64,000 nt of DNA from Eledone cirrhosa (taxonomy: Eukaryota): assembly GCA_964016885.1 (NCBI GenBank), contig OZ024740.1:359042001-359106000 (forward strand), read 5' to 3'. Shown here piece after piece: positions 4,276-59,298 of the stretch. The notes beneath the pieces were generated by a model, which was not told the origin of the DNA, did not search any database, and was given only the letters and a program-made list of their open reading frames with translations. Position numbers and translations under genes: made by a program. The stretch's first letter is position 1, and each line of letters opens with the position of its first letter.

Positions 4276-7200
4276 GTTGCCACGAATTATATGATGATCG
4301 ATATTTCGTGCTGGTATATAATATCAATATATGTTCAACATATTTTATGTTTTGTACGGTAAAACATTGTAAATGCGTTCTGTAAATGATTTGTTTTTCT
4401 TTTTTCTCTGCAAATTAAATATGAAAATGGAATTTAGATATCGGCTTTTCATAATATACATTTCAAAATTATAATGAATTTCCCGAAATAATATATAGAC
4501 TAAGGACTTATTCAGTTTGGATATTTAATCTTCTATAATCTTGTCTTATTGAGGATGAGTTTTATTGAATAGATTATCGTTTGTTACTAAAATAATTATC
4601 CGGCCAATATTTTTTGCAGCTAATTCCTTCTATTCTCGAAACGTAGGTTGTTGGCCAATATTTTTTAATTTTATGACAAGCATCGTTCAGCAACCAATAA
4701 AGTAGCAGACATATTTTGATTCACATGAGAAACCATTCTACTTGACATATGTTTGTAGTGCTTTTGGCAAATTATTAAATTATAATATATGGAGGCTTTT
4801 GCAATGAACAGCTAGTATGACTTTCTATCTCAAGTGGAGTCTTGTTGAGTAGGATCTTGATTTTAGAAATACGTTACTAAGACTTCAGTTAACGAAGTAT
4901 CATTTCAGTTTTCATCTTTCCTTTAGAACGTTTATGACATGAAAATATCCCAGCATTTTAACTGCCTACAATGTATTACAAAATACATTACATAGCAAAA
5001 CAAAACTGAATATTAGATATCAAATATATCAACCAATGAAAAATTAGCGGTATCAAATTGAAATAAAATACAATTCTGTCACGCCTCTGCATTTATAAAT
5101 TGTGTTTATGAGATGAATAAAATTAAACTCAAAATATGTCGCAGTGGTATGTGTTAGCATTAACTCGTCACTTTAATTATTATAATAGGGAATTACTATT
5201 TATCTATTCAGTGTCGTTTGGATTACCTAGGTTCGATAAGAAACTTTCTTTCTTTTATATAGAGAGAAATCGCGTGATATTTCTAGTATTTTCATTTTTT
5301 TTCTTTTTTTTTCGTCTAGATCTTTCTCCCACTGTCACATTGCTCAGTGGCTATGACAATTTGCTTCGTTTCATTTCAAATTCATTTCTTAATAAATCTA
5401 CCTGTGGCTATAGAAGAATTTTTATCTATATTTAATTACTTTCAAATAAATATTTTATTTGAATATACAGCCATAGCCATGTATTATTCTTATGCCTACA
5501 ACTACTCCTGTAGATTGTAAATATAGATATACCATTCACTTACACAGCTCTGTATCATTTATTATGCCTGCTACTAATGCTGCTACATTATGAGATAGTT
5601 AGCGACCTCTCAACCTCATTCCTAGAAAAGTAAGTACTGATTTCTCTTGTAGAACCTATCCTTTGTTGAACAGAATACCTTCCAGCATCAATTCCTGTTT
5701 TGCTATGTTCGTGAACGAAACACCTGTTCTTTAATGTACCCGATTTTGCAGTAAAATAAATGGAACATGTAAAGGAAAACAAGGTATAATTTTCGACCTA
5801 ATTAGAAATATACACACAAAAACAGGAATATATTAATTTTTGGAGTCTTAATACCATGAATCTAGAACGTTGGAAAACCCTTAGGAACGCATAAACGTAA
5901 AAGACACGTATGAAAATTCTTTATTTTTAAAGTGTCAATTGTTGTAGTAAGAGAGAGGCAAGTGAAATATAGCTTAAGTGAAATATAACTTAAGAATATT
6001 CTAAATTTAGAAGAACCTCATTATTTGCATATTAATATGAAGTACACATTCATGAATTTCCTTGTTCATTAAAATATATACATATATTCAGAGACATACG
6101 CAAATGCAAGTGTGTTGCTGTATACGCACTCGTACAGTAAGGTGATGATACACACCCTTGACATCTGCACAATTTAGATCTAGGATATATTTAATTGAAA
6201 AACAGGGAGGAAGATCACATGTGAGATTAATTTTGGAAGAGGGGGTGATGGAAAATAGCACTATAAAAATTAGAAACAAACAAAAATTCATTATCTGCGG
6301 AACATAGGTTTCCAGCCTAGAATGAGACGCTTTTCCTTGAGTTTACAGGCGTCGTTTCTGTCACAGTGCTTGTAACAACACAACTTGAGAGCTGTTCAGA
6401 TGCGTGTCCAGGTGGGCTTATGTGACGCGATACGAGTATGAGGTGAACATAGGCATCTTACTAATTTTGAGAAATGCGCACTGAACAATGCTATGAACAA
6501 TGACTTGCAGAATTTGTAGTTTCTGTCGGGAAGACACAGACCAGGTACTCGGTCTTGTGAACCATAGTGTGAGAGCTCTGATGGAATACTGGTTTGGGAA
6601 TAAATGGAAATGCAAAACAAAAATAAATAAACAGAAACCAGAAAAAATAAAGGTCGTAACTTCATTATAAAGCATGGGATAATTGAGATGTTTCTCATAT
6701 CCAGTGGCAGTGTTTTTAATATTATTGGATCATTGTATTCTATAGCAAATTTTAACTAATTTTTTTTGTTCTGATAGGAGGTTTAATTGGCAACAATGAA
6801 AGAATAGTAGGGGGAAGACTTCCTTTAGTTCAATTGCTCTGAAACAGTTATAACGTTTCAGTTATTCATTCTTCAACTAAGAGTGAAGAAGACAGAGAAA
6901 ATGGCATTGTCATTTTGGCTATCGGCAAAACCATTCTGAAGTGATTGAATTGTGTAAGATTCTAAGTATATTTCGAACGACTTTTCGTGATGATGTCGAG
7001 TATGGTGGTGATGGTGATATATGGATAGTGTGAACACGAAAAATAAGGTTAATATTTTGCAAGTATCTAACATATCTAATATTGTACCATGCATAGGAGT
7101 AAATTTCACCGCGCGGTAACTTAATCACTAGAAATATATACGCATATATCTTTAGTAACTTTTTTGTTTTGTTTATTACACTGCCTGCTTGGAAATATGA

Positions 7201-8356: not shown

Positions 8357-8503
8357 CATTACTGGTACATTATTTTATCGACCCCGTAAGGATGAAAGGC
8401 AAAGTTAACCTCGGCGGGATTTGAACTCAGATCATAAAGGGAGGTAACACTATGCTTCAAAGCATGGCGTCCGACCCTCTATCGATACTGTCAATCCACC
8501 GCC
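8357..8503 (-). mobile_element. tRNA-derived SINE, 3'-truncated at a (TA)n tract
   Basis: Minus strand ggcggtggattgacagtatcg...gagttcaaatcccgccgagg...ggggtcgataaaata. Confidence 0.9.
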
Positions 8504-8554
8504 ATTGCCAGAAATAATAATAATAATATATATACATATATATATTATATATAT

Positions 8555-10456
8555 ATGTATATATATATATATAATATAACGAGCGAAGTAACCCTTAAGC
8601 ACATCAATGATGAGGCATGCGAAATAGTGAAAAATCTCGGAATCGAAGATAGGACAGGACCACTCTTACCGGCGGTACCCACCTTCAATCTTAAGGACCA
8701 CAAGGTAAACTTTGATAATGACCCTAAAATAAGATTAATCTGCCCCTCTAAATCAGATATAGGTAAAATAAGCAAATATATCTTAGATAGAATCATCCCC
8801 CAAATTAAGGCTAAGGTTAACATTAAACTCTGGGGGAAGACCCAAGAAGCAATAAGATGGTTTAATAGCATTAGCAATAAGAATAAATCTAAGTTTATCC
8901 AGTTTGATATCGATGAATATTACTCATCGATATCACCTGAAACTTTGAATAGAGCCATTAAGTTTGCTAAGGATAACTCTGACCTTACAAACGATGAAAT
9001 TAAGATTATATTAGAAGCTAGGAAAACTATAGTCAAATTTGAGAACAGTTATTGGGTACGTAAAGATAGACCCTCTAACTTTGACATAACAATGGGCTCT
9101 AACGATTCGGCGGAAATAACTGATATTGTGGGGTTATTTATCGCCTTTAGACTCCAGGAAAAATTCAGCAATCTCCACGGCGGAATATACCGCGACGATG
9201 TTCTCCTCCTAGCTAAAAACCTTAATAACCAAAAACTAGAAAAACTACGCAAAGATATAAGAAAACTACTACTCGAAATAGGACTAACTATAACATATGA
9301 ATACAACCTTAAAGTAGTTAACTTCCTGGATGTCACACTCAATTTAAACTCTGGTTTGATTAAACCGTTTCATAAATTGAATGAAAATCTCAAATACGTA
9401 AATGTTGGGTCTAACCACCCCATCTCTATAATTAAATCTATCCCTAAAAATATTTCCCTTAGAATCTCGGGTCTATCTTCTAACATACAAGTATTTAAGG
9501 AACACGCCGAGTACTACGATAACGCCCTTAGTAAAGCAGGCTACCTCAACAAAACAGAGTACATAGATGGGAACAATCAAAACACCCAAAATAAATCCCA
9601 CATAGGTAGATATAATAACACAACACCAAACCACACTTACTACCATAGTATGCACACCAGTAAACCAACAAACAAAACTAATAGAAAGCGATGCAAGGAG
9701 TACTTATGGTATAACCCCGAATACAATAGCTCCATTAGTACAAATTTACCAGTACTCTTCTTTAAAATAATTAAAAGACATTTTCCCACATCACACAAAT
9801 ACCACAAAATCCTAAACCCTACCACTATAAGACTGTCATACTCTACAGCGTTAAACCTTGAACAACACATAAAAAAGATCAATACTAGAAGGTTAAACGA
9901 AAACACTAAGAACTTAAGTACAAAGAACCCCCCAAAAACAGTAGACAATACACTACAGAACATAAATAAACCACACCTAAGTTCGTCCGCAATACTACTC
10001 CAGAGAAAACCCAACGTACACAACTGTAACTGCACCTATCCTGACAACTGCCCCCTCGGCAATAACTGCCTGGAAAAAAATATTATTTATAAGTGTACCA
10101 TTAAATCCGGAGGCAACGAGTGGTATTACGTGGGATCAACGGCAACATCGTTTAAATCTCGATTGTATAGGCATTCTTACTCAATAAAACACCAGAGCCA
10201 AAGAAATGTAACAACTTTAGCAGAAAAAGCTTGGACGCTCAGGGATAGCAATCAAAAGTTTACCCTAAAATGGGAAAAATTAGCTAAAACCCAAAGCTTT
10301 TCCAGGAGCCAAAATTTCTGCAAATTGTGTAATCTTGAGATTTATTACATAATCACACACAAGAAGAAACTGCTGAATAACAGAATTGAACGAACATTAT
10401 TCTGCCGTCACAGAACTAAAACCCTTTTTTCCCACTACAAGCCGAATATTACATAA
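8555..10456 (+). CDS. Penelope-like element protein (RT plus C-terminal GIY-YIG endonuclease), 5'-truncated, Naiad-like
   Basis: Uninterrupted 633-codon frame with FDIDEYYSSI, FDITMGSNDSAE, GIYRDD, NFLDVTLNL, linker WYNP..HFP..IRLSYS, CNC..CPL...C, IIY..YYVGST, FKSR, CKLCNLE, CRHR. The Met comes from the microsatellite; real coding sequence starts at ~8573. Confidence 0.93.
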   Translation: MYIYIYNITSEVTLKHINDEACEIVKNLGIEDRTGPLLPAVPTFNLKDHKVNFDNDPKIRLICPSKSDIGKISKYILDRIIPQIKAKVNIKLWGKTQEAIRWFNSISNKNKSKFIQFDIDEYYSSISPETLNRAIKFAKDNSDLTNDEIKIILEARKTIVKFENSYWVRKDRPSNFDITMGSNDSAEITDIVGLFIAFRLQEKFSNLHGGIYRDDVLLLAKNLNNQKLEKLRKDIRKLLLEIGLTITYEYNLKVVNFLDVTLNLNSGLIKPFHKLNENLKYVNVGSNHPISIIKSIPKNISLRISGLSSNIQVFKEHAEYYDNALSKAGYLNKTEYIDGNNQNTQNKSHIGRYNNTTPNHTYYHSMHTSKPTNKTNRKRCKEYLWYNPEYNSSISTNLPVLFFKIIKRHFPTSHKYHKILNPTTIRLSYSTALNLEQHIKKINTRRLNENTKNLSTKNPPKTVDNTLQNINKPHLSSSAILLQRKPNVHNCNCTYPDNCPLGNNCLEKNIIYKCTIKSGGNEWYYVGSTATSFKSRLYRHSYSIKHQSQRNVTTLAEKAWTLRDSNQKFTLKWEKLAKTQSFSRSQNFCKLCNLEIYYIITHKKKLLNNRIERTLFCRHRTKTLFSHYKPNIT

Positions 10457-10627
10457 AAGAGGGACATCCCCCAACTATATAAACCTTAATCTAGTTAGAA
10501 AAATATAAAAACAATCTCTTCTCAACATATATTAATAACCTTAAATTACCATACTAATAATGAAAAGATATGCTGATGAGAATAGGTACAAATATGCGAT
10601 AATGAATGTGTCTAAAAACGTCCATAA

Positions 10628-11150
<523 letters not shown>

Positions 11151-11444
11151 TGCGTGGGTGAAAGAATACGTACACTTGAAAGAAAAATTTAAGTCTGAAT
11201 GTTAAGTGCAAACACAAAACCAACCACGCATATCTTTACTATCTCTAATCCTTCTATAGATTTAGAAAAATAACCAATAATATATTCCATAAAAAATGTC
11301 AAAACAACAGATGGGAATCTAATTACTCACTGCCACCAAGAATTCTCACTGCTATCGAAAAACCACTCCTTCAACTATTCTTCTAACAACTTCACCCCTC
11401 CCTCCTAATATTCTCTATAAAAACTAAATAGGTCCTCAGTAATA

Positions 11445-11561
11445 TTATTCTGATGAAATGACAGTAAATAATAACATTGAAATATTGAATGTCTGCATAA
11501 CTAAAAGTTTGTAGATAGCTGTTTTAGGTTATGTAACTGTTATAGAAACACGTGTCAATAA
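11445..11561 (+). ncRNA. Type I hammerhead ribozyme (minimal stem III, long stem II insert)
   Basis: uuauu-CUGAUGA-a-augacagu...acuguuau-a-GAAAC-ACGU-GUC^aauaa; stem I uuauu/aauaa; palindromic ACACGUGU; predicted cleavage after 11556. Confidence 0.8.
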
Positions 11562-11711
11562 ATTCCTTTCAACTAAACTGTATCCATTCAAATCTTTCTA
11601 TTTTTCTCCGGATTACTTTTGGAACTACAACTGGAACCGTCGAGCAAACTCTACGTGAGCTGATAATCTACTGTGTGTAATATTTATATTACAACACAAC
11701 GGAAAATACTG

Positions 11712-11760
<49 letters not shown>

Positions 11761-11986
11761 TATATATATAAGTATGTATACGTACATACATATATGTATA
11801 CGGACGTACAGTAGTATGTATATATATATATATATATATACATACATGCACACATATATATATGTACGTATGGATTCACCGAACATTTATTATAATGCTC
11901 GCTGTGTTTGTAAACAAACATCCCGAATTAAGCCGTGCAGTGTCTAGCAACCATCGTTGCTCATTTGTTCAACACTGACAAAGGAA

Positions 11987-12027
11987 CGCTGTACTAGTTT
12001 CAAGCTTATTAGCTATCGTCAGCAACG
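11987..12027 (-). ncRNA. Minimal type I hammerhead ribozyme
   Basis: cguug-CUGACGA-u-agcu-aaua-agcu-u-GAAAC-UA-GUA^cagcg. Confidence 0.85.
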
Positions 12028-12511
12028 TATACATTCATGCCACGTGGTTGAACGTCTGAACGTATATACTTTCCTTATGCATATTAACGGCTGAGCAGCC
12101 TAATTTGCATATCGAGTGAGTTAATCGGCCGTGAGCACCGAAAACGATAAACGGAAAAAATGAACCGAAATTTCATTTCTCACTCTTAGTACGGCTTTTA
12201 CTTAAATATAAGTATGTATACGTACATACATATATGTATACAGACGTACAGTAGTATGTATATATATATACATACATGCACACATATATATCTACGTATG
12301 GACTCAACGAACATTTATTATAATGCTCGGTGTGTTTGTAAACAAACATCGCGTATTAAGCCGTACATTGAAAAGCAACCATCGTTGCCCTTTTGTTCAA
12401 CACTGACAAAGGAACGATGTACTAGATATGCAAATTAGGCTGCTCAGCCGTTAATATGCATAAGGAAAGTATATACTTTCAGACGTTCAACCATCTGGCA
12501 GGAAGGTATAA

Positions 12512-12550
12512 GGTGCTGACGATAGCTAATAAGCTTGAAACTAGTACATC
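12512..12550 (+). ncRNA. Minimal type I hammerhead ribozyme (inverted copy)
   Basis: ggug-CUGACGA-uagcuaauaagcuu-GAAAC-UA-GUA^cauc; stem I differs from the 11987 copy but still pairs. Confidence 0.85.
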
Positions 12551-12987
12551 GTTTCTTTGTCAGTGTTGAACAAAAGGGCAACGGTGGTTGCTAAACACTG
12601 TACGGCTTAATTCGGGAGCATTATAATAAATGTTCGGTGAATCCATACGTACATATATATATGTGTGCATGTATGTATTTATATACATACTACTGTACGT
12701 CTGTATACATATATGTATGTACGTATACATACTTATATTTAAGTAACAGCCGTAATAAGAGTGAGAAATGAAATTTCGTTTCATTTTTTCCGTATATATA
12801 TATATATATATGAGTGAGAAATGGAATTTAGTTTCATTTTTTCCGTTTATATATATATATAAACGGAAAAAAATGAAACCAAATTTCACTTCTCACTCTT
12901 TGTACGGCTGTTACTTAAATATAAGTATGTATACGTACATACATATATGTATACAGACGTACAGTAGTATGTATATATATACATACA

Positions 12988-13045
<58 letters not shown>

Positions 13046-13677: not shown

Positions 13678-13771
<94 letters not shown>

Positions 13772-13775
<4 letters not shown>

Positions 13776-14600
13776 TAAACGGAATAGAAAATGCTGACAA
13801 ATTGTTCACAGTTGAAAAATGGCTTAATTAGGAATAAAAGAGTATTAGTGATTGTATGGGTTAGTATTCAGTTGTGGTTTTAAGTTTTTAAGTTTTTACC
13901 GGTTGCGCATTTCTAAATGCTTTTCAAAAATAATTTTGAGATAGAGTGTCCGAGCTGTTTGCTCTGATCTGATTAGTTTTGGGAATTCTACCTGTTTTTA
14001 TGTTAAAAAAGTGGCTCCAATTTGCAAAAATTCTTGTGGTCAAAACAATTTTGATTGGTCGGTAGAGGTCATGTGAATGTAAAAAATTGATTTTGCGCCA
14101 AGACTGTTTTTATGTTAAAAAAGTGGCTCCAGCAAAAATTCTTGTGGTCAAAACAATTTTGATTGGTCGGTAGAGGTCATGTGAATAAAAAGAATTTTTG
14201 CTGGAGCCACTTTTTTAACATAAAAACAGTCTTGGCGCAAAATCAATTTTTTACATTCACGTGACCTCTACCGACCAATCAAAATTGTTTTGACCACAAG
14301 AATTTTTGCAAATTGGAGCCACTTTTTTAACATAAAAACAGGTAGAATTCCCAAAACTAATCAGATCAGAGCAAACAGCACGGACACTCTATCTCAAAAT
14401 TATTTTTGAAAAGCATTTAGAAATGCGCAACCGGTAAAAACTTAAAAACTTAAAACCACAACTGAATACTAACCCATACAATCACTAATACTCTTTTATT
14501 CCTAATTAAACCATTTTTCAACTGTGAACAATTTGTCAGCATTTTCTATTCCGTTTACCAATATATAATAACTTGTGTGTTACACCTCTATTCTTTTAAC
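13772..14600. mobile_element. Foldback element B: 372-bp inverted arms plus ~39-nt tail, in (TA)n
   Basis: 13772-14143 is the reverse complement of 14190-14561 (three mismatches noticed); internal ~85-bp direct repeat; tail 14562-14600. Confidence 0.88.
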
Positions 14601-14622
14601 TATATATATATATATATATATA

Positions 14623-14815
14623 CGTTGAATCGGAGGTAACCACAGTAAGTAATGTACTCAATACATAGCAGAGTATAAAAGTTTTAATATAGATGAGATT
14701 CTACAGGACTAGAACCGTTTCATTCTTTAGAAATCATCACTTTTGGAAAGCCAGATTCCTGATGATTTCTAAAGAATGAAACAGTTCTAGTCCTGTAGAA
14801 TCTCATCTATATTAA

Positions 14816-14819
<4 letters not shown>
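14623..14819. mobile_element. Foldback element C: 60-bp arms, 20-nt spacer, ~57-nt tail, HHR-bearing
   Basis: 14680-14739 versus 14760-14819 inverted; (TA)n on both sides. Confidence 0.88.
14753..14803 (+). ncRNA. Type I hammerhead ribozyme
   Basis: agauuc-CUGAUGA-uuucuaaagaau-GAAACAG-uucuaguc-CUGUA^gaaucu; 6-bp stem I, 4-bp stem III; the other arm has G.U in place of A-U in stem III. Confidence 0.8.
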
Positions 14820-17193: not shown

Positions 17194-17602
17194 ATAGTAT
17201 AAAAAAAACGAAAAATCAGTGATGCATCTGGACTCAGTTTATTGCGTGTTACAATTGTTTCGCCGGCAGGTAGCTCGAGACATGATCACTGTATGGATCT
17301 GGCTGATTCTACGGCTGCGGGTTCCTTCGGACACGGGTAGTTCGTTCGGAGCAAATTTTCTCACTCCGAACGAACTACCCGTGTCCGAAGGAACCTGCAG
17401 TCGTAGAATCAGCCAGATCCATACAGCGATCATGTCTCGAGCTACCTGCCGGCGAAACAATTGTAACACGCAATAAACTGAGTCCAGATGCATCACTGAT
17501 TTTTCGTTTTTTTATACTATCCACACTCTACTCTGTATGAATATTGAGTACTAATTTTGGCATACCGCCTATGGAAGCACCATAGCTACCATTATACACA
17601 AG
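17194..17602. mobile_element. Foldback element D: ~158-bp arms, 12-nt spacer, ~82-nt tail, HHR-like motif in each arm
   Basis: 17194-17351 versus 17364-17520 inverted; AATAAA at 17472; (TA)n flanks. Confidence 0.88.
17380..17470 (+). ncRNA. Hammerhead-like motif with variant core (mirror copy at 17245-17335, minus)
   Basis: cgugu-CCGAAGG(A)-...gcag...cugc..-GAAAC-AAUU-GUA^acacg; stems I and III fit, the CUGANGA box does not. Confidence 0.55.
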
Positions 17603-17626
17603 TATATATATATATATACACACACA

Positions 17627-34044: not shown

Positions 34045-34458
<414 letters not shown>

Positions 34459-38076: not shown

Positions 38077-39780
38077 CTTGGATCTTTAGGTGTTTAGACT
38101 TGTAATGTATTTATATTGACAGAATCTTCCTGAGTATAGTTCCCATTAGTACTATCGTTTGTATTTCTTCTATACGCGGGTTTCCTGGGATTTGGGATAA
38201 GTAATCATTAGATCCTTAGGTATCATTCCTAGAGCGCCTAAAACCATTGATATTCTTTTAGTTCTCAACTTCCACATTTTTCCAATATCTATCTCCAGGT
38301 CTTTATACTTGTTCAATTTTTCAAATATTTTTATAGATACATTCTTGTCTATTGGAACGGACATATCAATTAGCAGGGATATCCTCTTTTTAAAGTCCTT
38401 CAGTATTATATCAGGTCTATTTGCATCTATTTTGGGGTCTGCTATTTTTCGGATGCTAAAGTTCCACAAAATTGAGATGTGAACCTTTCTCGGGAGGTGG
38501 TTGATGCTCCCACCAATTCTTTTGATGGGGCAAGTCAAAATGCTTACACATTATGCAATGTGTGTATTGTGCAGCTCTGTCATGCCTGTTTAGGTATTCG
38601 GTTGGAGCTATAGGACTGCACATTGAAATTATATGATCAATGATCTCTGGTTGTTTTTTACATACACGGCATAATGAGTTGCATCCATTTTTATGATGTT
38701 GGCTTGATAATTTTTTTGTTGGCAGACACTGATCTTGTGCTGGTATAATCAGTCCTTCAGTCTCCGACTCCAGTCCAGAGGATGCCAACCACTGATGGGT
38801 TAAAGTTTTGTCAACATCGGGATTGTTAGCTCTTTCTGGATATTTTCCATACAGAGTCTTTTCTTGCCAGTTTCTGTAGCAGTTCTTTTTTTGCAGTTAC
38901 TTTTACCTGCTTTGCTTTTTCTGTGTTTTTCATTTCAGAAGTAATGGAAACTTCTGGAATGTGTAGTTCATTACTGAATTTTTGTGCATCTTTTGTAATG
39001 GAGTATGATCTTTTGTTGCTTTCATGTTTCAAAACGAGTTTTATCATCCAATCATGTGCTTTCTTTAGATATGTAGATAATCAAATTGTAGCAGCTTTCA
39101 AAGCACTATCTATCTGGATTAATCGACGTCCTCCTTCTTTCCCAGGGAGATATATTCTATATGTATCTGCCTTAGGGTAATGCATTCTGTGCATGGTTAA
39201 TAATTTTCTAATTTTCGTATCGAGCCTACGGATCTCTGTGCTTGACCAGTTGATGATTTGAAACTGTAGGTTACTACTGGTATGGAAAGTGTGTTCATGG
39301 TATCGATTCTATTCCTTGCATTCAACTCCGTCTTTAACATTGCTCTTACTCTGTGGTAACATTCATTTCCCTCATTGTCGAGGGCTTGATTCCATCTCCT
39401 TCATAAACACCTAGATATTTGTAGTTTCGTCTTGATCAAATTCCCTTATCTCATTCCCCCGATCAAGATTAATATCTGAACATCTCAGCCTCTTTCCTCT
39501 GGTGAACGTGGCTTTGGCGCATTTATCTGGTCCAAACTCCATTTTAATATCATCACTGAACTCCTTCACAGTGGATGATAGCCCTTGCAATTGCTCATCA
39601 TTTTTTGCAAATAGCTTCAGGTTATCCATGTAGAACAAGTGATTAAGGGTTTTGTCATGAACTTTATATCCATGATTTGTTTCATTGAGCATTTTACTTA
39701 ATGGCATGAGTGCGATGCAGAATAAAAGCGGTGATAAAGACTCACCCTAAAAAATCCCACAATTAATATTAACTTCTCAA
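38075..39780 (-). mobile_element. 5'-truncated R4/Dong-type non-LTR retrotransposon (RT plus restriction-like endonuclease), disrupted
   Basis: NHLFYMDNLKLFAK, ETEGLI.AQDQ, CRVC..E.IDHIIS.C, RHD, NRPDII, KYKDL, VLGALG. Confidence 0.9.
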
Positions 39781-40014
39781 TGCTTTTATTATTATTATTA
39801 TTATTATTGATCTGTTCGGACCTCTTTTTGCTCGCTCCCAGTAAGTCGCTTTATTTACCTGTTATAATTATTTGTTGTTAAATTGTTCTTGTTGTGTAAG
39901 GGATATAAGCCCTTGGACTTTGCCCTGTGAAGGGGAAAGTAAAATATTTGGGCCTTTTGGTCCAAATATTAGAACATTTTACTTTTTAAAAAAATTGTTT
40001 AAAAAAAAAATAAC

Positions 40015-41708
40015 ATGTCTGAGCCACGCCTCACAGCAATATGTCTCCTGTCGTGTGACTACGGCGTAAAAGTTGAGAGGAGGGTTACAAAAATTGATAC
40101 AACAAACACCACCACAAACAACGTGAACAAAGACAGCAATGACAACAACACTGAGAACACTAATTTTAAGAAAATTACCGCACCAACTACAACAATAACA
40201 GCGACAACCAAAATACAGACAACAGAAAAAACATCACAACAAATGCAACAACGATATTTACATCAATAACAAGAAAATAAACAACGACAACACCAACAGA
40301 AACAATACAAATTGCACCGAAAACAACAACAACGGTGGCACCAAAAACACAACCAACTACAACAGTGATAACAGCAACAACACCAACAACACCGTTTGTA
40401 GCAGTAGCAACAGCAACAGCAACAAGACAAGTAGCAGAAGTGGCGGCAGCAATAATGGTGCCGCTGAAAAAAGGGGCCACTTCTTTCGCAGGTGTGGTCC
40501 GAAATATAGAAGCAGTGCCAGTCACAGAGGAGGATATGGAAGTCGCAAGGGCCATGGTGACAAGAAATGACAAGAGAGTTTCCCTGACACCTCCACCCGT
40601 AAGCAAAATGTCACAGCGGGTGGAGAGATCCACGGAGGCTCAAATCCAAAAGGCCTTGGGGTGCGTCTGGGCGCACAAAACCCACATCACCCGAAGCTAA
40701 AAGTATGCCACAGTAGACGTACTTTTAGCCACCCCGCAAGAAGTGAAGTCTCTCTCTTTGGAAACCCTAAAGATTGAGGAGATAGTCTTGGTGCCCTCCT
40801 ACTGCGGGCAGAAAATTGTGAGGGTCAAAGTGACCCAGGTTTCGCCCGACGTGCCCATACATTGGCTGGCCGCGTCTGTACTTACAGGAATCGAGGACAG
40901 GACCACCATACTGCAAATACAGAGAATGGGAAGAGAGAACTGGTCAGGTATAGGCATGCAAATGCTAATACAAACTGACCGGGATTGCATCGCGGCCATC
41001 CCTGATATCATAGACCTCGAGGAAGGACTCCAATTTCCTCTAAGCGTGGAAGTAAGGCGCCCAAAGTGCTATCTCTGTGGGAAGGAGGGTCCCCTCAGGG
41101 CCTTCTGCCCACAGAAGACAGCCAAAAAGAGGGCCCCCTCCTTCCGAGGAGTTCATACCCCTCCCAGACGCCACGGAATCCGACATAAAGTATGAGGCGG
41201 GAATGAAGTGGCAAAAGGTCTGCCACAAAAAACAAAAACGAAAGAACCACTTGCTTCGCCATCCAAAAGCGAAGACAAACAAAGAGGGGTAAAGGCTGCA
41301 ATGAGACGTGCAGCAACACCACCACCATCACCATCACCATCACCAACAACAACCATACCACCACCAGCATCACTCAAAACACCAACATCGTAAACACAAC
41401 AAAACACACACACCCAACTGCAACAACAAGAAAACAGCAACAAAACCACCCCTCCCCTAAAAAGGTAAACAGCCATAAACATTGTACACCAAGGATTAAT
41501 GGAACATATAAAACAGCACACCGATATTTCAGACGTAAATTACCACACCCCACCAACACTAAGAAAATTACCAAGAAATATTAACCTTGTGGAAATTGAA
41601 CTCGAAGATTACAAACAATTAAAACAAAAATTCCCCAACGTAGTTGGGATTTCAGGGAGTCACTCTCCAAGAGAATCTATACAGATATCATCTTGGAGAC
41701 ACCCATGA
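40015..41708 (+). pseudogene. Tx1-like ORF1 (Thr-rich N-terminus, degenerate zinc knuckle)
   Basis: Fragmented frames; SFAGVV and RRPKCYLCGKEGPLRAFCP. Confidence 0.75.
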
Positions 41709-41793
41709 CCAGCCGAAGGGACGTTTCTACTGTCCCTTCCCCACACAATCAAGGTAAGTGATCCTTTCTCAGTTACCCCGTTCCTCACCGAGC

Positions 41794-44627
41794 ATGGCCG
41801 TACTCAGAATAGGCAGTATAAATGTACGTGGCCTGGGTCATCTTGGAAGTTAGGGCACCTGCTCAATGACCTCAGGTCACTAAACATAGATGTGGTGGCC
41901 ACCAGAATCTTCGAAGCACGAGCCTTCGCACCGATCTTCGGCGGCTACAATGTATACGCATCTCCCAGCCGACGAGGATCGGGGGGAGGGTTGCCGTGCT
42001 TCTTTGGAGAGGCTGGGAACTTGCCATACGATCCATCTTCCTGGACCCAGAAGGTAAGTCGGTGGTGCTGGACGTGCCCGGCAACAAAGGCAATGCTTTC
42101 AGGCTAGTAGCCGTCTACGCCCCAACAAGGGCAGGACGGCCAGATTTCTTCAGACGTCTAGATACTTTCTTGGAACGTCCCGCTCTTTAGTGTTAGTGGG
42201 CGACTGGAACGGTATCTTAGATGCACGCTGGGATTATGTGGGGATAGTAGACATGGCAGGAGGGTGTAAAAGCCTCAACAACCTGCTCAGACGTTTTGAA
42301 CTGTCTGACAGGAATAGACTGGATTATCCGTATGTGCCAATGTGGACATGGGCAAACCGCATCGGGTCATCCAGATCGTATTTAGATAGGGTATTCTGTA
42401 GGGAAACAGATAAGGCTAGTGAAGGTTGTCCACAATTTAAAGTAGTCGACTACACGGACCACAAATTTGTGATCTGTGAAGTTGACTTAGATAGACCCCA
42501 TATGCAAGGGCCCGGCTACTGGAAACTGAATACGTCGTTCTCGGCGCGCAATGTTTACAGAGAACGGATTAGCGAATTAGTTAAGAGTGCGTTGACGGTT
42601 GCGATCATCAACAACAGGTGGTGGTTTACCCTGAAAAACGTTATTAGGGTAGAATCGATAAGGTTTAGCAAAGGAATAGTGATAGAGGAGAATAGAGTAA
42701 AGGGAGAGTTAGTTAGAAAGCTAGAAGAGGCGTTTAGGACAGGCATCGCAACCGCCGTGCTTGCGGCGAGATTGGCACTCGACCAATTCTTCAACGCAAA
42801 GCAGAAGGCTACGTTGTCAGAGCTAGAGCGCGTGCTCTAAGACACGAGGGGACGAAATTCGTTAAATGGACCTAGGTGGTGGAGGCGCGACGTGGCAACA
42901 AGTCCACAATTCGGTCTTTGTCTGATCAAAACGAAGGGCGCATGTTGCACGAACCCGAGCAGATGTGTGCGGCTTTTCAACAGCACTTTGCTCAATTGTT
43001 CGGGAGCGGCGGCGGCCGGATCGGAGTATGGACTTCGGTGCATACCTCGACGGACTGCCGCGGCTCACTAAGACCGCAGAGCAATGCTGCGAAAAGCCGA
43101 TAACAGCAGGTGAAATACTGGAAGCATTGTCTGGCAGCACGAGGGGTAAATAGCCAGGTGGGGATGGCCTGCCCTACGATCTTTATGCGTATATGCCAGA
43201 CTTGTTCGGCGACCTTTTGGCAGATGTCTACTGCAACTGGCAGCAGAACGGGAGCATTCCCAGTTTCGTGAGCCGGGGAGCGGTGGCGCTGCTGAGAAAA
43301 GACCCGAACAAGGGGGACGTTATAGACAACTTCAGGCCCATAACTATGCTAAACGCAAAGTTTAAGATTTTGGCCAAGGTGTGAGCAAAGAGATTGGCGC
43401 TTGTCGTCGGTGATCTGGTGGGAGAGGCGCAGACATGCGTCATTTCGGACAGATCCATCCACGACAACCTCCATCTCATGCGATACATCCTAGAGAGGGT
43501 GGTTAAAGAACCTGGCACGAGTGGGGCCCTGATAAAGCATTTGATAGGGTCGACCATTGGTACCTGGCTGCGGTCCTCGAGGCGGCCGGCTTCGGGCCCG
43601 TTTTTAGGGGCTGGATCGCTGCGATGCACAGCGACATCTGCTCGATTGTGAGCGTGAATGGTCACCTGTCGCAGCCTTTCAGCATCATGCGCTCGGCCCG
43701 CCAGGGTTTCCCCCTCTCGTCCTTCTTGTACGTACTGGCCCTAGAGCCGTTACTGCACAAATTGGAGACGATGAAGGGGGCCCCACGCGAACTGGGATGC
43801 GGGAGATCCATGTCAGCTTACGCAGACGACGTCACCCTGGTGGTGTCGAGCACCAAACACGTCCAGATGCTCAGTACCGCTCTCAATGAATACGAAGCGG
43901 TGACAGGAGCAAATATAAGCCGGAAAAGTCGGTGGGCTTGCAACTAGGCACCTGGAGCGGCCAGTCCATGCCGTCCGACTGCATCGTGGGGCACGGGACA
44001 GAAGGACCGGTTAAATTGCTAGAGTTCTGGTTCGGTCCGGACCTCCAGGGCGTCGAAGACAATCAGCTGTTCGCTCTTTTCAAGAGAACTTTCAGATCGG
44101 GGCCTATGGACAACTTCCAAAAATTCCTGGCCTGGCAGTGTTACCGGGGAGCGTTGCCGGTTCGGTATAAGCTCTACAGGCACGGAGGTGCTGTCAGCCG
44201 AGCCTGTCCGAGATGCGCGCAGGGCGACCAAACCGTCCTGCACGCACTCGTTCAGTGCCCGAGGATTGCTGACTTGTGGAGCTATGTCGAACAGCTGTGG
44301 TCGCATTTAGGGCGGATCCAGTTATCGACTGAGTCCATTGTGCAGATAGCCCCGCCATCCTCCTTTAAAGAGGAGGATGGGCAGGCAGTTTTCATCTGCC
44401 TGGTGGCCATGACGAAAGAGATTTTGTGGTGGACAAGATTGAAAGGGTTGAAGACGGACACTTTCCTCTCCGGCCAATCCTTCTTGATTAACTTTTTCAA
44501 GTTTCACTTGAAGAAGAAAATCAGGGTGGAGAGGCAAGTGCTGTCTTCTAGTAAGTTTGTTGAAAGGTGAGTGAACGTGGCGAGTCTGGTCCGAGTGAAC
44601 GGGCCTGCTCTGAGTATACGCCTGTAG
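41794..44627 (+). pseudogene. Tx1-like ORF2 (APE plus RT plus C-terminal zinc motif)
   Basis: MAVLRIGSINVRGL, VYAP, VGDWN, YLDR, TDHK, GYWKLN, NFRPITMLN, RQG.PLS, AYADDV, CPRC..TVLHALVQC. Confidence 0.9.
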
Positions 44628-44894
44628 ACTGAGGATTGGGAAAAGTGAGAGAGGGCGCTTGCCCTGGTGGTCAGCGTGGCCGTGGTCTTTTGTATGGTTT
44701 TTACCACGCGTTACCCTCGGAGGATTCCCCCTTCTTGGGAAATTTTTGTTGTTTGAAGTTTTGGGGGATTTCTAGCCCGATTTTGTTATAACCTGTTTAC
44801 ACGACCAAAACCCACTTTGTATCGTCCTGTACTGTTCTGTGCCGTCTCTAATGTTTTTCTTTGTGTCAGCACTTGTGGCCAATAAAGAAACGAT

Positions 44895-47800
44895 TAATAT
44901 TCTTTGAGTCTCAGTTATTGATGTTATTTAACTGGAAAGTTTGTTGAAATGAATATCAGACTGCTACCTGCAGCCTCAGATATTCAGGACTTATCGGAGG
45001 GTTCTTGCTGTTCCCAGCAAGCATGCCCTTTGAAGTGTTCCAAAAAGCGGGGCTGGACTAATTTTCTTTACCCATCCTTGGAAACTCTTTGAGATAGTAC
45101 CTAGTGCGCCTATGACAATCGGGACCACTTTGACTTCATGGCAGTTACAAATCCTTTTTACCTCCCACTTTAAGTCCTGGTATCGGTTAATTTTCTCCCT
45201 CTCCTTTTCTTGCACTCCCGTGTCAAATGGGCAGGCTACATCTACAATCAGGCACGATCTTTTTTCCTTGTCCCAAACCGCCAGTTCAGGCCTATTATGT
45301 TCCAGTTTCTTGTCCGTCTGTATCCTGAAATTCCATAGCACTTTCACCTGATCGTTTTCTATCACCGACTCTAGCTTATGCTCATACCACTTCTCAGAAT
45401 GTGGTAAATTGTTTACTTTGCATAGGTGCCAGTGGATCAATCTGCCCATCATATCATGTCTCCAGCCTTTATAGTTAGTCTGTGCTAGGTGTTTACACTC
45501 GGATACAATGTGAGCCACAGTCTCCTCCCTCTCTCCACAGATCCTACACAGTGGGCTAGCCTTGTAAATATGCTCCTTGTAAATATGGTGTTTCACCCAC
45601 TTCGTTCTGAGGGTCTGCTCTTGCGCAGCCATTAGCATTCCTTCTGTAGCCTTTTTAAGGTCTCCTCTTGTTAACCAGTTCCATGTCTGTGGATCTCTAA
45701 ATTCAGTTTTCTCAAAGAAGGTACTATTAAGAGATTTTTCATAAAGGTTGCTCTTCCTCCTGGCTGTTGTTTGCTCCTTGGACATCCCCTGGTTTATTGT
45801 CCTCTCCTTCAGTACAATTCTGAGCATTGGCTCCCTACTGTCAGTCACGTATTTGTGTACGTTGTTTTTCTCCATCTGAACACAGTCCTCTATGCTAATA
45901 AGACCGCTTCCACCTTCAGATCTCTTTAAGTAGAGTCTATCGACATCACTCCTCTTGTGGAACATGTTGTAGATAGTCAATAGCTTCCTAGTCTTCCTAT
46001 CCATTTCTTTTTGTTCAGCAACATTCCATTTCAGAATTCCCGCACTGTACCTAATAATAGACAGAGCTCGGGAATTCACTGCACTTGTGGCATTCCTACT
46101 GTTCAGATGTGACTTTAATATGCTCCTTACTCTCCTAATGTACTCAGATCTTATCAATTCCTTCATTTTTTTGTTCTTGATGTCATCTGCCTGCAGAACA
46201 CCTAAATATTTGTATCCTTCTTCAGTGTCAATTTACTTTATCATCTCACCTGTTGGTACCTGGATTCCGTTGCTTCTGATCAATTTACCCCACTTCATCA
46301 CGAGGACTTCACAGTTATTAATACCAAATTTCATACATATATCATTGCTGAAAATACGGAGTGTCAACAAGTACATCCAACTACTTCTCACTCTTCCCAA
46401 AGAGTTTAACATCGTCCATGAAGAGGAGGTGATTGATTGATAGTAAGCTCTCCTTTTCGAAACTGGTATCCTGCTCTCACTTTTCGCAGTATAATGGTCA
46501 GGGGTATCAGTGCAAGGACAAACAACAGAGGGGACAAACTATCTCCCTGGAAGATACCTCTCTTTATCTTCACGCCTCCGAAGGATTCTCCACCCGATGT
46601 TAACTCTGTTTCCAAGGACTTCATGCTCAACAACTGCCTGATGTTATCTGCCACCTTGAAGATCTTTAGGCTTTTGGTTATCCAAGAATGAGGTACCATG
46701 TCGAATGCCTTTTTGTAATCTATCCATCCCATGGCAAGACCAGTGTGTCTCCTCTTGCAATTCCTCATTACCATCTTATCAATAAGTAAATGGTCTTTTG
46801 TACCACGGGACTTCTTTTGGCATACTTTCTGTTCGTCCGGTAACAAGTTGTTTATGTGGATGTGATGGTAGATTTCCTCAGACACAATGCTTGTTAACAG
46901 TTTCCACATTACAGACAGACATGTGATAGGTCTATAGTTGGTAACTCTTGATTCGGTCTTTCATTACCAGAACTGTGGTACCTTTTATCAACCACTCTGG
47001 TACCTCATCCGACATCAAGCAGTCATTGAACATGTTTGTCAGTTTGTCAGAGGGAGGTTATAATTTTGATCCAATCCCCCTGCACACCATCTGGGCCTGG
47101 TGATTTCCAGTTGGTTAGCATTTTGGCCTGCCCTTTAAGAGTTTCAACTGTGATACTCAAATCAGTTTGTTGGTGAGCTTGTTCACTAATCTCCTTTTGT
47201 ACTGTCTCAATCCACACTGCTTGATCATTATGTTCAACATCCTGCTCCCATATTCCTCTCCAGAATGTTTTAGTTTGTTCCGCGTCAGGGATCAATTCGT
47301 TGCCTCTTTCTTCCCCTTCAAGCTGTCCAAACAGCATCTTCTGGTTGTTGTCAAACATGCGGTTCTGTTTATACTCTGCTCTCATACCGCCTAATCTTTA
47401 CACTCTTTGCTACAGTGCGTTGCTTCAGTTCCCCTATGATGATATTTAGCCTCGTCCTCCGAGTTTTGTACTTTATTTCCAGTCTATTTTTAGTGTCTAT
47501 GTTTTGTAGTGTCCCATTCAGTAGGGACTCAAGCTTTCCAATGACATTTCTCATTTCCTTGATTTGACCATCAGTCGTTTCTTTCACCAAGGTTCTGATC
47601 TTTCTTGTTTGTTGTTTCCTCTCGTTTTTATGCCAAGTAATTTCCTCACCGCATTTGCTGTTGCTTTGGGGATATTGTTGCATTGGTGAAGGTTCCTCGC
47701 CTCAAGGTATGGGATGACTTTGTTAACCTTAGCTGTTGTTTCTTTTAACTTTTTCCTGTCTACAAATCTTAGGTTCATAGGTTTCCCACTATCATTTTTC

Positions 47801-53775: not shown

Positions 53776-53858
53776 GTATATATATGTATATATATATGTA
53801 TATATATGTATATATATATATGTATATATATATATATGTATATATAGGAACCAGTAAG

Positions 53859-53952
53859 ACCCCGACAGCTGAGCTCAAGCCGTTTCGACGGCTAATTCTG
53901 GACTAAATGAAAATTTATCCTGGTATTTAAATAGCCGATCTTCTCAAGGGGT
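53859..53952 (-). ncRNA. Type I hammerhead ribozyme, U3-A8 core variant
   Basis: Reverse complement of 56002-56095. Confidence 0.82.
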
Positions 53953-55079
53953 AATTCCATATATGGTCAAAGTGATTGTCAAAAATCAGTAGTAATTCTG
54001 TGGTTGCAAATTAGTAGGGGAGATGGTGGCTAAACCTGCCAGTAGGAGAAAGAGGGGAGGGGGTGGAGTAGACCCAATCAAGCGTTGGTAGTGCCAGCTA
54101 CAGCTGGGCATGAGGTCAAAGAAGATACAGGGGAGGGGGAGGGGGAGGAAGTCGGAACGGTAGGTAGAACAATGGGGGGTAGAAATATATAGGAAAGAAA
54201 AAAAAAAAAAAAAAAAAAGAAATACTGAGAGTGAAGAAAAGCAAATAAGTGTAAAGAAAAAAGTAAAGTAAATTAAATTCTACGACCTAGGTCTCAGGCT
54301 ATTGTTAGGCTAGAATAAAATAAAGAAAGAAAGAAAGAAGTAAAGAAATAAATAAATAAAGAAATAACGAAATAAGTAAAAGAACTAGGTGGGACGGATA
54401 AGGCAAGGACCCTTTTAAGAGGTATAAGTACGTAAATGATACGGTGACGGGTCAACAAAAGGGGCCAAAATACTAAAGAGACTACCACGAAATAAACAAT
54501 AAAGGTTTCCATCCCGGGCCAGCAACGACCCAGTGCAGCAAAGTGAACTTGTACGAGATAATAATTCTGAGTCCCTAGAAAAATATATACTAATGCTAAC
54601 TCTAAAAGATCTAAAACAAGCTACATGAAAGTTCGTACGAAATAAAGGTAGAATACGGAGAAATAAATTCAGAATCCACCCCGCCCAGAAGAAAAGCGAA
54701 GCAAGAAATACTGAAACGAAAAAAATATGGCATAAGTGCCACTAAGAAATATAGAGGGCACAGAGAATAGTGGGAGCGGTCGGAAAAAGGGGGCAAGTAT
54801 CCGGGGTCTAAGCCAACTGCTATAAAGGGCGGAGTCCGCCAAATCTATCATAGACTAGGGGAGGGGTGGTGGGGGTACTAAGGCTACATGGGGCCAAAGG
54901 GCAGCCTCGGGTGGGCGAGAAAAGACGCCGACAAAGGAGAAGAGCAGGGGTAGAAGGACTAAGGAGAGAGGGGGGGAATAAAGGAAGCGATAAAGGAATA
55001 CAAAGAAGATCTTACGTCTTCCTTGGCAAGCAGGGGTTACCCATTGCAAAATCGGCAAGTGGGGTGTTATAGCCCTAGT

Positions 55080-55736
55080 CTACCCCCCCCCCGGGTCATT
55101 ATGGGGTTTGAGGGCGAGGTAAGTCCTACGCAATCTATGTTTACATGCAGTGACCAGTTCATCTTTCTTGTTTAGGAGTTGGTCCGTCGAAAACAGCATT
55201 TGTAAAGTTTCCTCCGAGCATAAATTGCACGGACGGCGTCCTCCCGTGTAAGAATTGGCTCTGGACAGTAATCTCCAAGTGAGATCATAGGTGATGTTGT
55301 TGTCCTTGAGGTCCCATATGTGGCCCGAAAGTGTAGTGGCGTGACGCCGGGCCGGGTTTCGGAAGGTATGTCTATGTTGGTATAGCCGGGTCTTGAAGTC
55401 ACATGCGGTAAGTCCTATATAGGCTTTGTTGGAGGTATCCGTCCTCACGTTGCACTGGTAGATCACATTACGGTCTCTGCATCTATTGTCGAGTGGGCAA
55501 ATAGATCTATCCGGGCAGTTACACCTCCTGGTCGGTTCTCCATTGCTATTTAGGTTATTTCTGCCATCGGGGTTGAGTTTATTGTTGTTAGAGGAGACGA
55601 TGTTTTGTGCGAAGTTTGGTGTAGTGCTGTAAGAGAGTTTGATGGTATTTTTGTTAATTATGTTGTGGTAGCGGTGTTGTAATGGGAAGTGTTTTTCAAT
55701 GAGCCTAAAGAATAGTTTCCCGATGGGAGTTGTCAC
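55080..55736 (-). CDS. Penelope-like element C-terminus: linker plus GIY-YIG endonuclease (truncated)
   Basis: IGKLFF.LIEKHFP, IKLSYSTTPN, CNC..CPLDNRC, VIY..AYIGLT, FKTR, CNLCSEE, CKHR; homologous to the C-terminus of 8555-10456. Confidence 0.92.
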   Translation of the reverse strand: MTTPIGKLFFRLIEKHFPLQHRYHNIINKNTIKLSYSTTPNFAQNIVSSNNNKLNPDGRNNLNSNGEPTRRCNCPDRSICPLDNRCRDRNVIYQCNVRTDTSNKAYIGLTACDFKTRLYQHRHTFRNPARRHATTLSGHIWDLKDNNITYDLTWRLLSRANSYTGGRRPCNLCSEETLQMLFSTDQLLNKKDELVTACKHRLRRTYLALKPHNDPGGG

Positions 55737-56001
55737 CTCTGCGTTTTTTTTTTTTTCTTTCCTATATATTTCTACCCCCCATTGTTCTACCTACCGTTCC
55801 GACTTCCTCCCCCTCCCCCTCCCCTGTATCTTCTTTGACCTCATGCCCAGCTGTAGCTGGCACTACCAACGCTTGATTGGGTCTATTCCACCCCCTCCCC
55901 TCTTTCTCCTACTGGCAGGTTTAGCCACCATCTCCCCTACTAATTTGCAACCACAGAATTACTACTGATTTTTGACAATCACTTTGACCATATATGGAAT
56001 T

Positions 56002-56095
56002 ACCCCTTGAGAAGATCGGCTATTTAAATACCAGGATAAATTTTCATTTAGTCCAGAATTAGCCGTCGAAACGGCTTGAGCTCAGCTGTCGGGGT
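56002..56095 (+). ncRNA. Type I hammerhead ribozyme, U3-A8 core variant
   Basis: acccc-UUGAGAA-ga(u)cggcua...uagccguc-GAAACGGC-uugagcuca-GCUGUC^ggggu; predicted cleavage after 56090. Confidence 0.82.
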
Positions 56096-56186
56096 CTTAC
56101 TGGTTCCTATTACCCACTCTACTACCTCAAGTATTGAGTACTTTGGTGCGTTATGGTCCACCTGGTTCCTTACCACATTTCCTTCG

Positions 56187-56188
<2 letters not shown>

Positions 56189-56242
<54 letters not shown>

Positions 56243-57576: not shown

Positions 57577-58411
57577 TATTTCGATATCCAATGATTTCAA
57601 TCTCGTTGCTTACAATTTACTCAACAAATTCTTTAGGGCACATGCATGGTATCAATTATATGGCAACATTCCCAGCCAGATGCCTAATCCATGAAAATAT
57701 ATTGTAATTATTGTATCGACAGATTAACAAATGCAAACTTTAAAGTACTTCCAATTTCATCAACTGAAACGGCCAGTATATATATAACTCTGCTAGAATA
57801 CAAATATCCAAGTGTATGCTATACTGTTTTAAATTCTGTGAAGAATTTGCTGATCATTGATTAATAATAAACCTATAATCAACAATTCCTGGATGAAGGA
57901 AAATTCTCATCAAACCAGCAAGTCCTTTGAGGGGTTTCCACATATCGACCTTACTACTAAATGTTCAGGTCGATGCTGGAATCCCACGTGTAGCATTATC
58001 TGCTTGGTGGTAATGCTGAATGTAGCAGCATGACTTCACCAATGTGGAACACTCGACCATCATTTTTCTTTCTTTTTTTCGATTTTATTTGTTTTCTTTG
58101 GAAATTGTCTTTTGTTTTTGTTTGATTTATTTTTATATTTGCTATCCAAGGTGGAAAATAAATAGCGGAGGCATAATGTTACAAGATAACCTTCTAATAA
58201 TATAAGTATGTATACGTACATACATATATGTATACAGACGTACAGTAGTATATATATATATATACATACATGCACACATATATATATGTACGTATGGATT
58301 CACCGAACATTTATTATAATGCTCGCTGTGTTTGTAAACAAACATCCCGAATTAAGCCATACAGTGTCTAGCAACCATCGTTGCTCATTTGTTCAACACT
58401 GACAAAGGAAT

Positions 58412-58450
58412 GCTGTACTAGTTTCAAGCTTATTAGCTATCGTCAGCAAT
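58412..58450 (-). ncRNA. Minimal type I hammerhead ribozyme
   Basis: uug-CUGACGA-uagcuaauaagcuu-GAAAC-UA-GUA^cag. Confidence 0.8.
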
Positions 58451-58839
58451 GTATACCTTCCTGCCAGATGGTTGAACGTCTGAAAGTATAAACTTTCCTT
58501 ATGCATATTAACGGCTGAGCAGCCTAACTTGCATATCGAGTGAGTTAATCGGCCGGGGTACCGAAAACGATAAACGGAAAAAATGAAACGAAATTTCATT
58601 TCTCACTCTTAGTACGGCTGTTACTTAAATATAAGTATGTATACGTACATACATATATGTATACAGACGTACAGTAGTATGTATATATATATATATACAT
58701 GCACACATATATATATGTACGTATGGATTCAACGGACATTTATTATAATGCTCGGTGTGTTTGTAAACAAACATCCCGAATTAAGCCGTACAGTGTCTAG
58801 CAACCATCGTTGCTCATTTGTTCAACACTGACAAAGGAA

Positions 58840-58880
58840 CGCTGTACTAGTTTCAAGCTTATTAGCTATCGTCAGCAACG
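58840..58880 (-). ncRNA. Minimal type I hammerhead ribozyme
   Basis: cguug-CUGACGA-uagcuaauaagcuu-GAAAC-UA-GUA^cagcg. Confidence 0.85.
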
Positions 58881-58961
58881 TATACCTTCCTGCCAGATGG
58901 TTGAACCTCTGAAAGTATAAACTTTCAGATTCACCGAACATTTATTATAATGCTCGGTGTG

Positions 58962-59116
58962 TTTGTACAAACATTCATAGTTTGAACAAACATTCATAGT
59001 TTGAACAAACATTCATAGTTTGTACAAACATTCATACTTTGTACAAACATTCATAGTTTGTACAAACATTCATAGTTTGTACAAACATTCATAGTTTGTA
59101 CAAATATTCATAGTTT
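58962..59116. repeat. 19-bp minisatellite, about eight copies
   Basis: tttgtacaaacattcatag repeated without spacers. Confidence 0.92.
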
Positions 59117-59138
59117 CTAAACACAATAAATCGAATTG

Positions 59139-59298
59139 AAATATATTTACATTAGACTTACCATTATATTAGAAAACATGAAATATATTTACATTAGACT
59201 TACCATTATATTAGAAAACATGAAATATATATAACAATGTTTAAGTTCTTACAGAGATGTTATAAAGGCTATAATAATTATTAATTAATCAATTATAT
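59139..59298. repeat. 42-bp tandem repeat plus segment duplicated at ~60874-60988
   Basis: atatatttacattagacttaccattatattagaaaacatgaa twice here and again right of the mariner. Confidence 0.8.

Follow-up and report, generated by a model that had tools for sequence, protein, structure and literature searches.

Predicted bulged hairpins as probable signals for the reverse transcriptase start sites of Hydra-clade Penelope-like elements

Introduction

A stretch of 64,000 nucleotides of the Eledone cirrhosa genome (the window) contains three elements, A, B and C, each of which carries the same short bipartite motif in a tail that extends only one of its ends. What does this motif signal, and is it connected with the one-sidedness of the tail? 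The Hydra clade of Penelope-like elements (PLEs), its hammerheads, its one-sided tail and the two start sites have already been published. Mechanistic work on the origin of the one-sided tail and of head-to-head copies was called for in PMC8557442; in PMC11167929 two start sites were placed, not the signal.

Results

Elements A, B and C and their Hydra-clade parents

The features of the three elements are compiled in Table 1. Element C (53844-56190) is a 5'-truncated Penelope-like element of which only the inverted pLTR copy runs on into the tail; a tail on one side only is likewise seen in the two short foldbacks, A and B. Judged by their sequences, A, B and C are the truncated ends of three Hydra-clade Penelope families. 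The initial annotation had proposed that the motif links the ORF-less foldbacks to GIY-YIG elements, and ORF-bearing parents were indeed located for both foldbacks, an endonuclease (EN) fragment in L135 for A and L142/L025, with an RT about 50% identical to that of C, for B. The ORF of L140 was rejected as parent of B and assigned to family 6.

Table 1. Coordinates of the features of elements A, B and C in the window
Feature	Position	Strand	Basis or remark
Hairpin 1, family A	17525..17552	+	ACTC...TT-GAGT-ACT; alternative 5' arm at 17530
Tail of element A	17521..17604	+	One arm only; inverted arms end at 17520 in most pairs
Tailed arm of foldback A	17364..17520	+	Inverted-repeat detection
Tail-less inverted arm of foldback A	17194..17351	-	Ends in (TA)n
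Divergent hammerhead-like fold, family A	17380..17470	+	Stem I CGTGT/ACACG, non-canonical 5' core, predicted cut after 17465; by eye and fold
Hairpin 1, family C	56116..56142	+	Sequence
Tail of element C, 80 nt	56111..56190	+	Inverted repeat, raw reads
Type I hammerhead, U3-A8 core variant, tailed arm of C	56002..56095	+	Predicted cut after 56090
Short inverted pLTR arm of C	55744..56110	+	367 nt, 100% identical inverted repeat
5'-truncated Hydra-clade ORF (linker and GIY-YIG endonuclease) of C	55080..55790	-	ORF
3' pLTR of C, mirror hammerhead (core 53864-53947)	53844..54210	-	Tail-less end in (TA)n
Hairpin 1, family B	14653..14674	-	Sequence
Tail of element B	14621..14679	-	About 10 nt below family norm
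Tail-less arm of foldback B	14753..14819	+	Intact hammerhead 14753-14803, predicted cut after 14797

Family C is young. At least 150 places scoring 98-100% were found in a genome search, and the family contains intact 717-aa ORFs, one of them at L131:5488-7638, as well as a tandem array (L131-L132) with a period of 3,531 bp. Its units are 99.97% identical, the motif is present at four of its junctions, and the last end is tail-less. A perfect head-to-tail array of this kind agrees with repeated passage round a circular or multimeric template RNA.

The three elements had been described as unrelated. This holds at the DNA level, where pairwise blastn returned matches of 8-11 nt only, but not for the parent proteins, which are homologous: their endonucleases are 37-43% identical and, in a 12-row tree, formed a group (95/93) that excludes four non-Hydra ENs. 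The sequences RW[KR] and CxCX5C are diagnostic for the Hydra clade (PMC8557442). RWR, an N-terminal RWK-type motif, is present in families C and B, the region being missing in the A parent, and the CxCX5C linker precedes GIY-YIG in A (L135), B (L078/L142) and C (L131 and the window). DKT, changed from DKG, is found in families C, 6 and K; none was seen in the open frames of B, and the region is absent for A. CCHH is lacking; CxxC and CxH flank the conserved E and N in B and C, and the single A parent is degenerate there. A canonical sense hammerhead is predicted near the 3' end in B and C, and the predicted core of family A is non-canonical. The elements are inserted into (TA)n, and they show the tandems, the inverted 5'-truncated copy and the tail at one end that characterize the insertion unit of EN+ PLEs. 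No family was assigned to the Hydra ORFs by Pfam.

The elements share with the Hydra clade of C-terminal EN+ PLEs, as presented in PMC8557442, the sequences RW[KR], DKT, CxCX5C and CxxC/CxH around E and N, targets of the (TA)n type, partial tandems together with an inverted truncated copy, a tail on one side and, for B and C, a predicted canonical sense hammerhead. They differ in tail length, about 58-85 nt here versus 30-40 there, and in the 3,531 bp unit of family C, which is not below 3 kb; the size of generally <3 kb is a tendency of the clade rather than a diagnostic (PMC8557442).

As to the ribozymes, the description of three hammerhead elements needs correction for A and B. The hammerhead of A is divergent, its core in the family being CCGAAGGA (CTGA in 3 of 23 copies), and is regarded as a putative ribozyme; in B the intact hammerhead is located on the tail-less arm. 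In the Rfam scan of the window, the 150 of 155 matches listed were microsatellite-driven miRNA matches, with no hammerhead among them. Like the hammerheads of Penelope elements and non-LTR retrozymes (PMC4209133; bioRxiv 10.64898/2026.07.22.740005), those found here are of type I with a palindromic stem III, including the U3-A8 core variant already described in PMC4209133; the hairpin discussed below differs in being a separate downstream element. The foldbacks themselves were rejected as non-LTR retrozymes, that is, ORF-less head-to-tail tandem hammerheads, because their arms lie head to head and A, B and C have ORF-bearing parents, of which the foldbacks are truncated ends. A further family of type I hammerheads is represented at 34133-34178 (-); the five copies seen all stop 50 nt past the cut and are tail-less.

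Occurrence of the motif in the window and in the genome

The motif was recovered at its three annotated positions, 17524-17551 (+), 56115-56141 (+) and 14654-14675 (-), in each case on the hammerhead-sense strand and 3' of the predicted cleavage site, with a (TA)n run at a distance of 33-52 nt. The bipartite form occurred in none of 300 Markov-simulated windows. In the 3.0-Gb genome, which is rich in AT/CA microsatellites, it was matched exactly 65,016 times as compared with 0 matches for a reversed control pattern, and the decamer alone was found 106,404 times versus 3,954 in the control (27-fold enrichment). A variant form with GCTC, predicted from the coral and sea-cucumber consensi considered below, gave 20,262 sites versus 78 for its control; when 30 of these loci were fetched and inspected by eye, nearly all turned out to be element ends followed by a TA or CA run. 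The genome-wide enrichment bears out the proposal that the motif is a conserved cis-signal at Penelope termini.

Within the window, the decamer by itself is weak evidence. Seven occurrences with one mismatch were observed (7.01 expected), and 1,047 of 42,207 complex 10-mers are present at least three times in this repeat-rich sequence. The output of a repeat finder was dominated by microsatellites. The identical decamer is present in all three elements as annotated, although its exact three-way identity is partly accidental because most copies of family A have TATTGAGTGC instead (21 of 23, from 30 loci), and the window copy of A is an atypical one. For family B, the junction pattern gave one match, and no partner arm was found for the decamer in its 3' UTR.

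Structure and conservation of the hairpin

Rather than the decamer, the conserved feature is, on comparative sequence grounds, a bulged stem with covarying pairs, a predicted RNA hairpin of the form RCTC-(upper stem, variable loop)-TW-GAGY-RC; the suggestion that ACTC/GAGT can close a hairpin was thereby confirmed at the level of prediction. The consensus, built by fetching decamer sites that fail the strict pattern, which led to further families, comprises RCTC, an upper stem of about 3-7 pairs, a variable loop, a two-base 3' bulge (TT or TA), GAGY and then RC. One family has a C(UUCG)G loop.

Pairing was evaluated over 25 clusters (153 copies), all of which were retained even though at least one is an obvious artefact; the clusters are related, and the invariant CTC/GAG core, being imposed by the search patterns, carries no weight as evidence. 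At the base of the stem the pair is A-U in 15 clusters, G-C in eight, G-U in two and A-C in none. In the upper three pairs, 61 of 75 positions are paired (62 of 75 under the other register rule) versus 42.7 +/- 3.1 after permutation, a value reached in 0 of 20,000 permutations. A pair-count gave 94.8% of cells paired and 26 double changes (0 of 500 shuffles). Two of the five measures that it yields, one for pairs with double change and one for further pair types, were no higher than in shuffles. Sites with GAGC as right arm start with GCTC in 95 of 100 cases among the matches listed. G-U exceeds A-C by 75 to 8 over the copies and by 11 to 3 over the clusters, which points to a hairpin acting on the sense strand.

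Taken singly, the hairpins are of ordinary stability (z -0.2 to -1.1), for C and B the MFE fold is not the one proposed, and only the lower four pairs were returned by RNAalifold. In element A two registers are possible: one starts at 17525, with a gap of 4 nt to the tail-less break and perfect pairing in sister families, and the other, starting at 17530, corresponds to the MFE fold. The spacer between the arms ranges from about 9 to >25 nt with the upper stems paired, and hairpin 2 of family K (L343-L361) has a 63-nt inner region between its arms, so the loop length is free. Family K was considered as a counter-example with a second stem 40 nt away; this was rejected, as the true 5' arm lies 3 nt past the tail end and is followed by the long inner region.

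The hairpin is also present in consensi from other animals. Inspection by eye of the six in the supplement of Craig et al. (PMC8557442) revealed a clear hairpin in three, a variant in one and none in two: it lies after the hammerhead in Hydra-2_Amil (coral) and in Hydra-2_Ajap (sea cucumber), stands at the start of Hydra-1_Ajap and occurs as a variant in Hydra-1_Crog (copepod), whereas Hydra-1_Amil stops before any tail and Hydra-1_Obim is ambiguous. The other four matches to the 3'-half pattern in that supplement lie in coding-like sequence. The main text of the same paper mentions no hairpin, stem-loop, bulge or dimer, yet its consensi contain the hairpin. In a metagenome scan, five of the 80 stretches examined (from 120) contained a loose hammerhead pattern; four were chance-like and one (L160) was genuine, combining a hammerhead and a perfect hairpin with the end of a Hydra EN. 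No hairpin was detected in six downstream segments of other hammerhead or non-Hydra families, one of them known only from tail-less copies. This distribution suggests that the hairpin is specific to the Hydra clade.

A further Hydra-clade element, 38% identical to family C, occupies 8438-11710 (+) of the window. Its hammerhead, at about 11445-11560, has a long stem II, and a decayed core resembling a hammerhead is found near 10570; the tail shows only a degenerate long-loop candidate for the hairpin. Hairpin-bearing families that lack a canonical hammerhead, often arranged as direct pairs 572-603 bp apart, were observed elsewhere (L302-L305; G000:C1, about 18.4-23.1 Mb).

Two hairpins at a fixed offset from the element ends

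Each family checked at a tandem junction carries the hairpin twice. Copies that run past the tail have a second hairpin of the same consensus directly after it, a copy that the initial annotation did not include. Insertion ends are mostly located 3-5 nt before hairpin 1 (tail-less end) or hairpin 2 (tailed end). In raw DNA reads from two runs, the family C unit passes into (AT)n mainly at L131:5317 (2,925 and 2,600 reads) and L131:5397 (7,398 and 8,050 reads); the L131 hairpins start at 5323 and 5401, 5 and 3 nt past these two ends. Further loose ends at 5308, which also leads into TA, and at 5384 look like sister subfamilies. The important register is that of the tail-less end, 3-5 nt upstream of the motif, and not the one to the tail end downstream to which attention had been drawn.

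The gap to hairpin 1 is 4-5 nt in A, B, C and J, with 8 nt in family K and 6-9 nt in family 6 as exceptions. For hairpin 2 it is 3-5 nt in five families, namely C, K and three more, three of the five being represented by a single run-on copy; in family B hairpin 2 is reduced and about 7 nt from the end. Counted from the predicted hammerhead cut, hairpin 1 lies 25 nt away in C, 27 nt in B and 59-64 nt in A. Because this distance varies more than twofold, the ends appear to be measured from the hairpin. Both types of end finish in TAT-like letters matching the TA target. The ATG of a tandem unit comes after both hairpins, 165 and 87 nt downstream of them in family C. A tailed end contains no copy of hairpin 2. 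That this hairpin is absent from the tailed copy and yet sets its end implies that it would act only on the template, which is the strongest argument for template action.

Pairing of tailed and tail-less ends

The first 100 listed ends of family C comprised 49 of the tailed and 51 of the tail-less type and formed 34 head-to-head pairs. As listed, 32 of these pairs were mixed (p 3.5e-8), and all 34 were mixed once the two exceptions had been inspected. With the 12 mixed pairs out of 13 in family B (by eye, four doubtful pairs being inspected), one end of each kind was present in 46 of 47 head-to-head insertions; re-inspection covered the discordant pairs only. Insertions with two tailed ends exist but are rare (L099, L323). 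Among the 153 copies, partners were tailed in five cases versus tail-less in 41, with 18 other stops and 89 copies for which no partner was found. The ORF-bearing long arm was tail-less in 19 rows and tailed in 17.

Arm differences in 35 pairs averaged 2.4 within one insertion versus 6.8 between insertions. In element C of the window each arm holds sequence that is missing from the other, so that neither was copied from the other and a simple snap-back is excluded. Self-priming on an antisense template has been proposed in PMC3846280; as a single snap-back it does not fit this element.

Discussion

The motif is the first of two homologous predicted bulged hairpins, which together probably anchor the reverse transcriptase on its RNA and fix the starts of copying by one dimer, one start on each strand, and the placement of the hairpins likely explains the extra tail at one end of each insertion. 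In the model, an RNA of more than unit length, or a circular one, would present the hammerhead, hairpin 1, the tail, hairpin 2 and then the ORF. A protein dimer would bind both hairpins and the endonuclease would nick both strands of a TA repeat; priming would take place at two UAU sequences, of which one protomer would use that directly 5' of hairpin 1 for one strand and the other protomer that directly 5' of hairpin 2 for the opposite strand. The resulting cDNAs could each have any length and would be joined head to head, and tail length would equal the distance between the hairpins. The initial annotation had offered RT recognition, 3' processing and a promoter as functions; the first fits best, and the other two fit poorly. 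Tentatively, the process may be taken further as an obligatory, programmed twin priming, in which one dimeric RT-endonuclease copies twice a single RNA held by two ancient hairpins, the start at each hairpin serving for one copy and each copy going to its own target strand.

A close likeness is to Poseidon PAc (Frangieh et al. 2024, PMC11167929), whose protein extends both strands, both being nicked, from two internal RNA start sites that bound the tail. There, too, the targets are AT-rich and a dimer is predicted, RNA 3' of the start sites is needed, and a binding element was inferred there. Poseidon belongs to another clade, and no difference in start site between the strands was seen (PMC11167929).

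In the model proposed here, both starts are fixed and linked to hairpins. L1 twin priming likewise uses two primers on one RNA and leads to an inversion; it differs in that the second priming of L1 is internal and variable. RNA structures that fix the start of an RT are known from the template-defining elements of telomerase RNA and from hepadnavirus epsilon. No homology of sequence or structure is claimed with L1, telomerase or epsilon.

Alternatively, the signal might act at the DNA level, the GIY-YIG EN recognising the stem as sense single-stranded DNA or as inverted half-sites, nicking beside it and resolving an intermediate to the tail-less end. The tail was ascribed to EN-mediated resolution in PMC8557442, the D. 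virilis EN required the tail for recognition as reported in PMC11167929, and mixed ends would result here as well. We nevertheless regard this as unlikely, since hairpin 2 is equally offset to the tailed end yet absent from such cDNA, tail-less long arms cannot derive from a shorter tailed arm, and upper stems remain paired over spacers of such different length. It is very unlikely that the RNA is cut just before each hairpin and then copied by ordinary TPRT from the new 3' ends. Fixed offsets and a hammerhead close by would agree with such processing, but two independent RNAs should yield half unmixed pairs, as opposed to 46 of 47 mixed; moreover, the hammerhead cut lies at a different and variable distance, and Poseidon starts internally on uncut RNA (PMC11167929).

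The position of both hairpins upstream of the ATG in tandem units would suit a control element of the 5' UTR (promoter box, translation operator or packaging signal) whose nearness to the ends is secondary. Compensatory pairs and the G-U bias argue for a single-stranded structure rather than a promoter box, and the hairpins keep a tighter spacing to the ends than to the ATG; this reading is just as improbable as RNA processing, though the hairpin may have a secondary role in translation. Passive inheritance or chance, with no function, is the least credible reading and hardly deserves belief: common ancestry of the families and the partly accidental decamer triple would favour it, but the stem has been kept with double changes and in other phyla, although the flanks are unalignable and the proteins 31-51% identical.

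In the accessible Penelope literature, with subscription papers, preprint supplements and figures mostly outside its reach, no description was found of the hairpin pair or of the near-strict rule of mixed ends; the accessible part of the octopus repeat paper (PMC13282606) contains nothing on the hairpin. As an element of 25-30 nt with built-in compensatory variants and a fixed offset, in a young family with intact 717-aa ORFs, the signal is directly testable. As a simple marker it serves to annotate >85,000 ends of elements in this genome, and it is relevant to the way in which RTs related to telomerase define a template. If the proposal of programmed twin priming is true, the hairpin, conserved between corals and molluscs, would be a clade-wide template-defining RNA element of telomerase's sister group and would offer a portable signal by which RT start sites could be programmed.

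Other repeats in the window include a family with direct and inverted copies at 11825-13000 and 58131-58977, which has a hammerhead-like core near 12517. A 19-bp tandem array at 58924-59151 adjoins the copy of a repeat family. A foldback of 378 nt (arms 99%), with a nested duplication in its interior, is located within (TA)n at 13766-14567. Broken ORFs at 38170-46960 are presumably fragments of a LINE RT and endonuclease.
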